NCBI GenBank assembly: GCA_036867785.1
Contig: CP145425.1
Span: forward strand, 372,001-436,000
Direction: 5' to 3'
DNA: 64,000 nucleotides
From: Plasmodiophora brassicae
Taxonomy: Eukaryota
In this document: positions 18,201 through 21,200 of the stretch, piece after piece
Numbering within the stretch: the first letter of the stretch is position 1
How the letters are laid out: every line of letters begins with the position of its first letter
Position numbers: made by a program

Positions 18201-21200
18201 CGTCCTTTCGATGAGTTTAATCTGATAGGGGACATGATGCAGTCGTGAGGTATCGCTTGATTTAACATGATGTGCTTGAGTGTTGCAGCATTGTGGGCGG
18301 TCACGTGCCCTGCTGTATTTGCCGTTGATTGATGATGAGCTTGCAGACGCGCTGTTGGCAATATCGATCGCTGATCCGTCTGGTCTGGCTCCGGCAGTGA
18401 ACGTCATGTTTTAGTTCTTGAGAACGTGCTGGAAGGTCGTCTGGAGGAAGTTCCATCGCTTAAGGGTGCACCACTGAAGATGTTCGTACTAACCTTCTCT
18501 GACTTCTCCATTAGCCTTGCCCCGTCTTTGAACTGATATCTCGTTTTGGGACGTTAATGATCTTCTACTCAGTGTTCTACTCCAATTGTCCAGTCTGGAA
18601 TGGGTTACCCCGCTTTGCAACCCGCGTTTTGGCGGCACAACCGAGTGAACTGAGCGAGGACGACGATGGCCGGATTTGGTGCCAGAAGAGCTTGGCTTTG
18701 ACGGCACGGTCAACATCAACAGTACTGGTGCGTTCTGTAGGTTACTCCCACGAACGCGGTTGGGTGCATCCAAGGTACTGGCATCGTGAAGAGCGCACAA
18801 TGGGCAAAGCGCACAATGGGCAAACGTGGTCCACGCGATCCCAGGTCGAAAGACACGGCCGGTGTCCCCGACAAGCGGCCTGTCGTGCTCACCGTATGTG
18901 GGGCACTTCACCTGCTGACACCGCATCGAGGACAGGACGCAAATATAGATTTACAGGCTTTCGAGTCGGCGGCGTCGCGAGGTTCGGCAGCCAGCCGCCA
19001 ACATGAAAAGAATGGCCTCAAACGTTTTCGTGCTTCCGGTGCGCCGTCAAGACAACTGAATCTGAACCTGAATTCGAGCTTGTCCGGACCCCGACGATGA
19101 ACGGCGCGGGACGTAGACGGGACTGCCATGCCGGCCGACCCAGTCGCTATGGAAGAACAACATGAACAGCTTGAAGAACACCCCGCCCGGCATGACGACA
19201 GCAACGAAGCTGCCGCAAACATGCTGAAGGGGCAAACGCCGATCCTTACACCTGTGACTCCTCCGCAACTGAACAGCACTGTCTACAAATGTGTGACAGA
19301 ATTCTTGACGAAGTACGAGGTGTCTCTTGATCGCAAGAAGGTGACAATAATGTTGCTTGTGGCAATATTCATGCATATGGTTTTTGACCCTTGAATGAGA
19401 ACAGACACAGCTGAGCCAAAAGTTCCCCTTCGTATGGGACACCAAGTGGGAACTGGACGGGGAGCTTGCGCTTCTATTCGTTGTCGGATGCTCCACCAAC
19501 TACATCTTTTAGGATGCCGGCGATGCGAGGGGCAACATCAAGGACAATGCTTCCGGTTTCGTCACAAAGTCCCTGAAGAAGTGGGTCGGACATTTCTTGG
19601 TTGACGGGACGGAGCACGACCAGTGTACGTTACTGAAGGCGCAGGAAGCGCATGCGGGCGTCATTCGGCATTCCGCTGCCAATGATGTGCGCGACGCATG
19701 CGTCCCAGCGGAACCGGCGGATTGTAGACCAGACCGCCCAACTAGGCCACGAGAGCAGCTGCTCTCGTGGCCTAGTTGGGCGGTCTGGTCTACAAAACAT
19801 CTCACCGGGGAAGCTCGTACCCCCCGACGATCGAGCGATGTCCGCCGCCTACCCGTGTAGACGACTCGCAGACCTGCTCTCGTGCCTGGCGCGTCCGTAC
19901 TATCTACCATCCTCCCCAAAACTCTCCGTCCACGGCGGACTTCGAGGAGGCTCGAACTCCCGTCGGTGAGATGTTTTGTAGACCAGACCGCCCAACTAGG
20001 CCACGAGAGCAGCTGCTCTCGTGGCCTAGTTGGGCGGTCTGGTCTACTAAGCTGCTCTCGTGGCCTAGTGGGCGGTCCGGTCTACAGGATGCAAGAGGTG
20101 GATGGATCTCAAAATCGTGGAAGAGCGTCCGGATAATATAACCGAGTACCTGGAACCGAATCACAAGATTCTGTCAGGCCGCTTGTGGTTTGGCAGGTCA
20201 CGAGGTGCCTGCCCTGCACCGCAACCAGCACAAGGTGGGACCTCCATCACTTCGTTTCATGCAAGGCCTGGACGAACCCGAAAGCAGCAGGTTTGTCTGA
20301 AGTAGGTGCTCTGGCGACGCGATGTAATGTGATACGTGTAGGTTCGCAATGTTATATTTAAAGAGCAGCGTTTGCGAAAACGCTCTTGCAAGACGTGGGA
20401 GTGCTCAATCACTTCGGGGCCGTGCTGCTCAACTTTGCGAACGACGATTTGAGATCCATCCACCTCTTGCATCCGCCGGTTCCGCTGGGACGCATGCGTC
20501 GCGCACATCATTGGCAGCGGAATGCCGAATGACGCCCGCATGCGCTTCCTGCGCCTTCAGTAACGTACACTGGTCGTGCTCCGTCCCGTCAACCAAGAAA
20601 TGCCCGACCCACTTCTTCAGGGACTTTGTGACGAAACCGGAAGCATTGTCCTTGATGTTGCCCCTCGCATCGCGGGCATCCTCAAAAATGTAGTCGGTGG
20701 AGCATCCGACAACGAAGACAAAATATAACAGAAACGCAATCCATGTGGCGCACGAGGACCGGATTAGGCCCCAATCGGCGTTTGTATTGCATACAGATAC
20801 GGCGTCGATGGCGTTGCGCGTACAATCAGGAACGGGTCCACCGCTTCTTGATAGTCCTGACAAATTCCCATCCCCAACGGGACTCGAGGAGCTGGACAAG
20901 GTTACTGCTCTCGCGCAGCCGAGCCAGATCCAATGCGGTGTGCCCGTACGCCTCTTGCGCGTGAATATCGATTCCGGGGGCTCTCAGCAGCAGCTCGACA
21001 ATGACGCGATGTCCTTGAGACACCGCCACGTGCAACGGCGTCTGCTTCGCATAACCACGCGTGTTAACGTCGATCCCAGGTGCATTCACCAGCGACATGA
21101 CGGTCTGGTTATGCCCAAAGTAGGCGGCCCAGTACAGCGGCGACAGCTGATCCTTGTTGCACGCATTGACGTCGATCTTGGGTGCCTTCAGCAGCACTAC

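Follow-up and report, generated by a model that had tools for sequence, protein, structure and literature searches.

A palindromic, non-autonomous transposon family with 4-bp target-site duplications in Plasmodiophora brassicae

The target-site duplication of the human element MADE1 is TA. MADE1 is an 80-bp miniature inverted-repeat transposable element (MITE) composed of a pair of terminal inverted repeats (TIRs), 37 bp each, with a 6-bp spacer, forms a hairpin, is the source of miR-548, and sets a precedent for an 80-bp palindrome made of TIRs alone being a MITE (PMC1784062); TA duplication is the rule for Tc1/mariner elements (PMC10045372). Ginger1, Ginger2 and the long terminal repeats (LTRs) of Gypsy have TGTNR ends and 4-bp duplications, with Ginger1 targeting CCGG or CCGT/ACGG and Ginger2 the AT-rich RTATAY (PMC2836005), while IS481EU elements combine TGT..ACA ends, 4-bp duplications and TIRs mostly shorter than 50 bp (PMC10045372). 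Here we describe a palindromic element family in a 64,000-nucleotide window of the genome of Plasmodiophora brassicae (the whole stretch analysed: assembly GCA_036867785.1, contig CP145425.1, positions 372,001 to 436,000 of the forward strand, with coordinates counted from its first base), where it is represented by a 364-bp insert and by a solo 72-bp palindrome. The family resembles MADE1 and MiHsmar1 in its TIR-only construction from repeats of ~36-37 bp, in its near-perfect palindrome of 72-80 bp and in being non-coding and multi-copy; like MADE1, it would form a very stable hairpin if transcribed. It differs in that MADE1 belongs to Tc1/mariner and has a 6-bp spacer, whereas here there is no spacer, the ends read TGTAG...CTACA, the 4-bp duplication varies in sequence and the host is a rhizarian.

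The features that define the first insertion, none of which is assigned to a strand, are given below with the evidence for each.

19472..19722: host inverted duplication, left part of arm 1, which resumes at 20087-20113 (inverted-repeat pairing)
19719..19722: left target-site duplication GGAT, repeated after the insert and single in the paralogous arm
19723..20086: compound non-autonomous element of 364 bp, TGTAGACC...GGTCTACA (repeat analysis, arm alignment)
20087..20090: right target-site duplication GGAT (sequence, arm alignment)
20448..20721: host inverted duplication, arm 2, uninterrupted (inverted-repeat pairing)
20471..20474: empty site, ATCC on the plus strand, that is, a single GGAT (inverted-repeat pairing)

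The insert starts with TGTAGACC and finishes with GGTCTACA, as established by reading of the sequence and repeat analysis, and has GGAT on either side. It interrupts one arm of a host inverted repeat, the main part of which pairs 19472-19722 with 20471-20721 (251 nt, 97%) and the remainder 20087-20113 with 20448-20474 (27 nt, 100%). In the paralogous inverted arm there is one GGAT only and no insert: the reverse complement of 20448-20480 reads CCGGCGGAT directly followed by GCAAGAGG. Once the insert and one GGAT are taken out, arm 1 and the reverse complement of arm 2 can be aligned straight across the junction, with no gap. Both the sequence and this alignment bear out the original prediction of a 364-bp insert flanked by GGAT and matched by an inverted host copy with a single GGAT, and the alignment of the two arms supports its reading as an insertion with a 4-bp duplication whose empty site lies within the window.

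Folded as single-stranded DNA, the insert reaches -147 kcal/mol (z = -22). Pfam gave no match for the stop-to-stop frame that spans it (19509-20081, minus strand), and no Rfam family was found at its gathering score, the best scores being 37.6 bits against a threshold of 53 and 35.5 against 84. Membership in an Rfam microRNA-precursor family was dropped, as these sub-threshold scores are of the sort that any long hairpin yields. The insert sits in a host sequence that is in turn an inverted duplication (19472-20721) of 278 bp, its arms 97-100% identical and separated by a spacer of 334 bp, located downstream of an ankyrin-repeat open reading frame (ORF) at 20826-21791 on the minus strand, and a long hairpin RNA would be expected from it if it were transcribed. 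For the ORF that crosses host arm 2 (20429-20983, minus strand), neither a longer homologue nor a Pfam match was found, and we make no claim that the insert disrupted a gene.

The second insertion consists of a single palindrome with a different duplication; its features are likewise unstranded.

23306..23309: left duplication CCAC of the solo copy (sequence)
23310..23381: solo 72-bp palindromic element, arms 92% complementary (arm matches, inverted-repeat analysis, contig joins)
23382..23385: right duplication CCAC of the solo copy (sequence, contig joins)

To place these insertions in the wider genome, Logan contigs of four public runs (X2, X13, X16 and X17) were compared with positions 18500-24500 of the window. 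At least one contig in each of the four runs joins 23305 to 23382, skipping 76 bases (72+4, with 4 bases that fit either side). The depth of these empty-site contigs is far above that of unique neighbours (in X2, 1958.5 versus ~271), and their sequence departs from the window, with 0 and 4 other letters in X2 record 25 and 4 and 18 other letters plus 3 gaps in X16 record 13. High depth together with letter differences indicates that the contigs represent paralogous copies of a multi-copy segment rather than alleles. The exact skip of 72+4 bases, in a copy with a duplication of its own, implies that the 72-bp palindrome alone is the minimal, complete mobile unit. The original prediction had described the termini of the family as hairpins; the ends are palindromic, but they are more than termini, since one such palindrome suffices as a mobile unit. 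It had also named copies lacking a duplication as the observation that would speak against it, and the solo copy carries CCAC on both sides.

The solo copy lies ~155 bp downstream of the stop codon of a kinase ORF (23537-25960, minus strand). This ORF is on the multi-copy segment and has protein-kinase Pfam matches; its protein is 98% identical to an NCBI Plasmodiophora brassicae protein and falls into a 90% cluster of 15 member sequences. In X2 and X13, contigs of the kinase segment (23123-24500 and beyond) are ~7-20x as deep as unique neighbours, and this depth, taken with the 15-member cluster, marks the segment either as a multi-copy gene amplified recently or as a piece of a larger repeat.

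The same contigs define the ends of the element at other loci. Among the loose ends listed (127 further loose ends exist), X2 contigs whose match ends at the first base of the element number at least 2 at 19723, at least 6 at 23309 and at least 5 at 23310, and beyond the element edge they run into unlike and mutually different flanks (agreement 0.48-0.6). At least 3 contigs of X13 lose their match at 19723. Summed word depth of the arm relative to unique neighbours came to ~29x in X2 (7919.9 versus 271.4) and ~50x in X13 (4700.8 versus 94.4); as word depth is a rough measure and not a copy number, we state only that there are tens of arms. A longer variant, found in one contig in each of the four runs, has an arm that extends for 46 nt, a stretch that takes in the inner 20-bp palindrome, before passing into unrelated sequence, with loose ends at 19749/19768; a longer element may end here.

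Taken together, these data identify a family of non-autonomous TIR transposons (MITEs) of Plasmodiophora brassicae, an assignment of which we are highly confident. It follows from two 4-bp duplications with empty sites, identical inverted ends, the lack of coding capacity and the many differing flanks. Each of the two copies has 36-nt arms at either end; the duplication measures 4 bp in two of two copies (GGAT and CCAC), each with its empty site; and members are small (72 and 364 bp), without a Pfam match, and multi-copy, with at least 13 contigs of different flanks in X2. The non-autonomous family expected by the original prediction is upheld in the same way, by a non-coding, multi-copy sequence and a second copy with a 4-bp duplication and empty paralogous sites. 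Exact pattern scans with the arm gave 0 matches in JGI metagenomes, IMG/VR viral contigs and prokaryote genomes, which says only that those collections do not contain the arm.

Inside the 364-bp insert, the family's arm is repeated several times, as listed here (again without strand).

19723..19794: P1, a perfect 72-bp palindrome of two 36-nt arms with no spacer (0 mismatches, both strands)
19795..19807: left-arm inner extension AAACATCTCACCG, which pairs with 19964-19976 (84-nt arms, 100%)
19808..19963: core of 156 bp (repeat analysis)
19839..19907: degenerate third palindrome-like unit in the core (alignment to unit positions 1-71)
19964..19976: right-arm inner extension CGGTGAGATGTTT (84-nt arms)
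19977..20048: P2, a second 72-bp palindrome with T, not A, as its final base (1 mismatch, minus-strand arm)
20052..20086: terminal half copy of 35 nt, the right terminus of the insertion (shorter-pattern matches, contig variants)

The left terminus of the insert is the outer arm of P1. A perfect 74-bp palindrome spans 19722-19795 (37-nt arms, 100%), the outer T of which is the final base of the duplicated GGAT, so that the unit proper is the 72 bp at 19723-19794; the second perfect palindrome measures 70 bp (19978-20047). Inverted arms of 84 nt (19724-19807 and 19964-20047), 100% complementary, enclose the core. This is the architecture proposed originally, with 74-bp and 70-bp palindromes, a half copy and inward inverted arms around a core of ~155 bp, now refined to a 72-bp unit and a 156-bp core. 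Searching with the 36-nt arm and allowing up to 3 mismatches gave 6 matches in the window, against 0 expected from 100 shuffles, and shorter patterns picked up the half copy as a seventh; all seven are confined to 19723-20086 and 23310-23381. The core has no further copy within the window. Its degenerate unit aligns to unit positions 1-71 with a score of 49.5-51.5 (shuffles, 33.2 +/- 4.3), which was matched by 0 and 2 of 1000 shuffles and by none of 983 other window segments.

The arms within the insert are not all of one origin. Arm position 9 (window position 19786) is A in all four arms of P1 and P2, and G in most genomic copies, in the left arm of the solo copy and in the terminal half copy. 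The majority variant, seen as T>C at 19786, is present in 13 contigs of X2 (5801 of a depth of 7920), in 18 contigs of X13 (4077 of 4701) and in one contig each of X16 and X17, where it accounts for the entire depth. The shared A implies that the four P1 and P2 arms derive from one mutated arm. A 1-nt deletion in the half copy (at the equivalent of 19778) was found again in 3 X2 contigs; carrying both the majority G and this recurrent deletion, the right terminal arm belongs to another subfamily, which makes the 364-bp insert a chimera. None of the inner boundaries of the insert has a 4-bp duplication (GGAT/AAAC; GTTT/AAGC), and the insert is therefore one insertion rather than a nested one. 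On the same ground, we rejected both P1 or P2 as independent insertions and a 326-bp element nested inside an older solo copy.

What, then, moved the family? Insertion took place where the target was cut with a stagger of 4 bp; this stagger and the TGTAG...CTACA ends suggest that the enzyme was a DDE member of the integrase-like clade (Ginger, IS481EU or an LTR integrase). With Ginger1 and Ginger2/TDD the family has in common TGTNR...YNACA ends, 4-bp duplications, TIRs of tens of bp and the occurrence of non-autonomous copies; the Ginger groups have TIRs of 40-270 and 50-180 bp, whereas those of the present family measure 36 bp, or 84 bp in the compound element. TGTAG...CTACA with GGAT and CCAC agrees with the ends and duplication of Ginger1, and equally with the TGTNR ends and 4-5 bp duplication of Ginger2/TDD. 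The IS481EU elements of parabasalids are similar in their TGT...ACA (TNT..AYA) ends, short TIRs, 4-bp duplications in several families and non-autonomous families, and the ends, TIRs and duplications seen here agree with theirs; in the published descriptions consulted, however, they are reported only from parabasalids and also with duplications of ~15 and ~25 bp, whereas both duplications here are 4 bp.

Other mobilisation mechanisms were set aside. Helitron, Crypton and IS200-type mechanisms leave no target-site duplication, and were rejected because a 4-bp duplication is present here. The duplications GGAT and CCAC are not the TA of Tc1/mariner, and mobilisation by hAT, Mutator, piggyBac/Kolobok, Tc1/mariner or classical PIF was rejected on the length or sequence of the duplication, by the rules for these groups, which are given in part in PMC10045372. 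On balance, we consider it probable, though by no means assured, that this is a family of palindromic, TIR-only MITEs of MADE1-like build, moved in trans by a DDE enzyme of the integrase-like clade that cuts with a 4-bp stagger. Membership in the Ginger, IS481EU or LTR families is something that only the transposase would allow us to claim.

In the mechanism that we propose, the minimal member would consist of two 36-bp TIRs placed head to head to give the 72-bp perfect palindrome TGTAGACC...GGTCTACA, the two identical ends of which would be bound by a transposase encoded elsewhere. The element would then be inserted at the staggered target cut, repair of which would yield the 4-bp duplication. 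The 364-bp insert represents a single insertion of a compound, chimeric member: it ends in a P1 arm on one side and in a lone arm of another subfamily on the other, and in between it holds one more arm, a full second palindrome and, in degenerate form, a third unit. One end could have become a two-ended 72-bp unit through copy-back, or through template switching, at the inner 20-bp palindrome, and derivatives that are chimeric and rearranged inside could have come from gap repair that used an ectopic copy after excision; the minority variant common to four arms and the foreign right arm are in keeping with, but no proof of, such an origin of the palindromes and of the chimera. One may go further and picture a rhizarian lineage of Ginger/IS481EU type of which nothing is left but a 72-bp perfect palindrome, a length below that at which a DNA duplex can loop; its two ends would then need to be brought together in trans, or in the form of an extruded hairpin or cruciform, new members would arise by copy-back at the inner 20-bp palindrome, and read-through transcripts of the hairpins might enter the unusual 21-nt small-RNA pathway of this pathogen, in the way that MADE1 feeds miR-548; as a whole, this extended scenario is distinctly doubtful.

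Several observations weigh against mobilisation in trans by an integrase-like enzyme, or against parts of this account. Only two insertions can be read with both flanks, and the empty sites of both are paralogous. No joint 19722/20087, the mark of an allelic empty site for the 364-bp insert, is among those listed for the four runs, which is in turn no evidence that the insert is fixed. Two contigs reach its junctions, X16 record 9 on the left (19394-19727, no differences, 5 nt inside the insert) and X2 record 22 on the right (20058-20500, 29 nt inside), and both fall under the 31-nt bridging rule. The target sites do not follow Ginger preferences, with neither of the two matching the CCGG or CCGT/ACGG of Ginger1 and neither, in this small sample, the AT-rich RTATAY of Ginger2; the fit to integrase-type mobilisation put forward originally accordingly holds for TGTAG as an instance of TGTNR and for the 4-bp length, and fails for the Ginger targets (0/2). 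A duplex of 72 bp has very little length in which to bring its two ends into synapsis with each other, and variant sharing is the single line of evidence that suggests a copy-back and gap-repair origin. Finally, the Pfam scan of 74 window ORFs (the 13 that reach 300 aa, plus 61 of the 96 that reach 170 aa; those left over overlap with these) found no transposase or integrase with these ends. Their sole transposon-type product is a DDE_Tnp_4 fragment of PIF/Harbinger type at 3355-3930 on the plus strand (E = 3.8e-20), near which there is no arm-like sequence; besides this fragment, the 74 ORFs include no integrase, reverse transcriptase or other transposase, and specifically neither a Gypsy-integrase-like transposase (in Ginger1, with YPYY, zinc finger, DDE and GPY/F) nor an IS481-like DDE transposase.

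These points bear on the choice between explanations. A palindromic MITE could instead have been moved by a DDE transposase that lies outside the integrase-like clade and gives 4-bp duplications. Sola, Chapaev and Academ are superfamilies with duplications of this length, and are candidates here. Only the length of the duplication and an end motif of 5 bases speak to the type of enzyme; neither target site suits Ginger, and the DDE_Tnp_4 ORF offers a PIF/Harbinger-IS5 relative as a candidate in the window itself, Harbinger/ISL2EU relatives being known to give duplications of 0-4 bp (PMC10045372). Yet no TGTAGACC-like arm lies near that ORF, and TGT...ACA ends are a hallmark of the integrase-like group (PMC2836005, PMC10045372), so that an enzyme from outside this group seems to us unlikely, though a contender to be taken seriously. 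A retrotransposon origin, with the 364-bp insert as a solo LTR or the 72-bp unit as a mini complementary DNA integrated by a Gypsy or Copia integrase, would account for the TG...CA ends and 4-bp duplications, which are LTR-like (PMC2836005), and would suit a genome whose repeats are dominated by Gypsy and Copia (10.64898/2026.10.14.759018, PMC11191646). Solo LTRs of these groups are indeed alike in their TG...CA ends, their 4-6 bp duplications and their abundance in the P. brassicae genome, and the ends and duplications at this locus agree with theirs; they are unlike it in that the family has a palindromic, arm-only build and a 72-bp member with a duplication of its own, too small to hold U3-R-U5, a primer-binding site or a polypurine tract. 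Inverted arms, and in the 72-bp member a perfect palindrome, make up the elements in place of a unidirectional LTR, the window has no ORF for reverse transcriptase, RNase H or integrase, and DNA-level repair suits the chimeric arm variants better, all of which leaves a retrotransposon origin improbable.

The sequences might also not be mobile DNA at all, and reflect instead an assembly chimera or a palindrome made locally by repair. Short-read assemblies break at palindromes, and neither junction of the 364-bp insert is bridged by a contig with at least 31 nt on each side. Even so, contigs reach those junctions in X2 and X16, the arm occurs at many loci with differing flanks in runs from several studies, the presence or absence of 72+4 bases is exact in all four runs, and two independent 4-bp duplications are exact; an artefact of either sort is extremely improbable. 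A palindromic MITE family moved in trans by an integrase-like DDE enzyme remains the reading that we prefer.

With respect to the literature, repeats have been put at 5.4% (PMC4471660), 11.88% (PMC11191646) and 11-14%, mostly Gypsy and Copia (10.64898/2026.10.14.759018), of the P. brassicae genome, all three being superfamily-level summaries. In the P. brassicae genome literature searched there is no mention of a nuclear MITE, Ginger or palindromic transposon, although supplementary repeat tables may list the family under an automatic name; one supplement of PMC11191646 showed none of the repeat-class names Ginger, hAT, Gypsy, MITE, Unclassified and Maverick. Six arm motifs of 10-11 nt, in DNA and RNA spelling, were absent from two supplementary files of a P. 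brassicae RNA interference paper, a weak negative. Apparently, then, the family has so far gone undescribed, while its kind, the TIR-only palindromic MITE, is already known.

With its exact ends and defined duplication length, the family gives a direct lead to its transposase, and Rhizaria might thereby have a first described DNA transposon of integrase type. The insertions offer presence/absence markers for isolates of the clubroot agent, an economically important crop pathogen, and the family marks perfect palindromes at which short-read assemblies break. Its members adjoin multi-copy kinase and ankyrin genes, classes that a pangenome preprint has tied to structural variation, and the 36-bp perfect hairpin is a plausible candidate substrate for the pathogen's 21-nt small-RNA machinery.

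Elsewhere in the window, the encoded proteins are eukaryotic in character, with Pfam matches to myosin, Mad3/BUB1, PPR, the CH domain and ankyrin repeats, and several further repeat structures were seen. At 57836-59132, large inverted repeats are nested in a foldback-like arrangement of ~1.3 kb, with arms of 149 nt at 94%, 126 nt at 92%, 90 nt at 89% and 34 nt at 94%. An inverted repeat at 47987-48456 (128-nt arms, 90%; 214-bp spacer) adjoins split DPP IV-like ORFs at 46119-47255 and 47290-48243. The 131-bp near-palindrome at 61133-61263, TACGACTCG...CGAGTCGTA, has 49-nt arms (92%) and a 33-nt spacer and is unrelated in sequence to the TGTAGACC family; a loop motif of ~22 nt from it recurs directly downstream, at 61271-61292. 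Dispersed direct repeats at 50649-50899 and 52038-52155, 84-87% identical and ~1.3 kb apart, lie upstream of a 1222-aa ankyrin ORF, and a 42-bp tandem duplication is found at 49334-49417. Just upstream of the ankyrin ORF that neighbours the 364-bp insert, at 21791-21851, contigs of X16 and X17 skip 59 bases through which those of X2 and X13 are continuous, indicating an indel difference between the two groups of runs.

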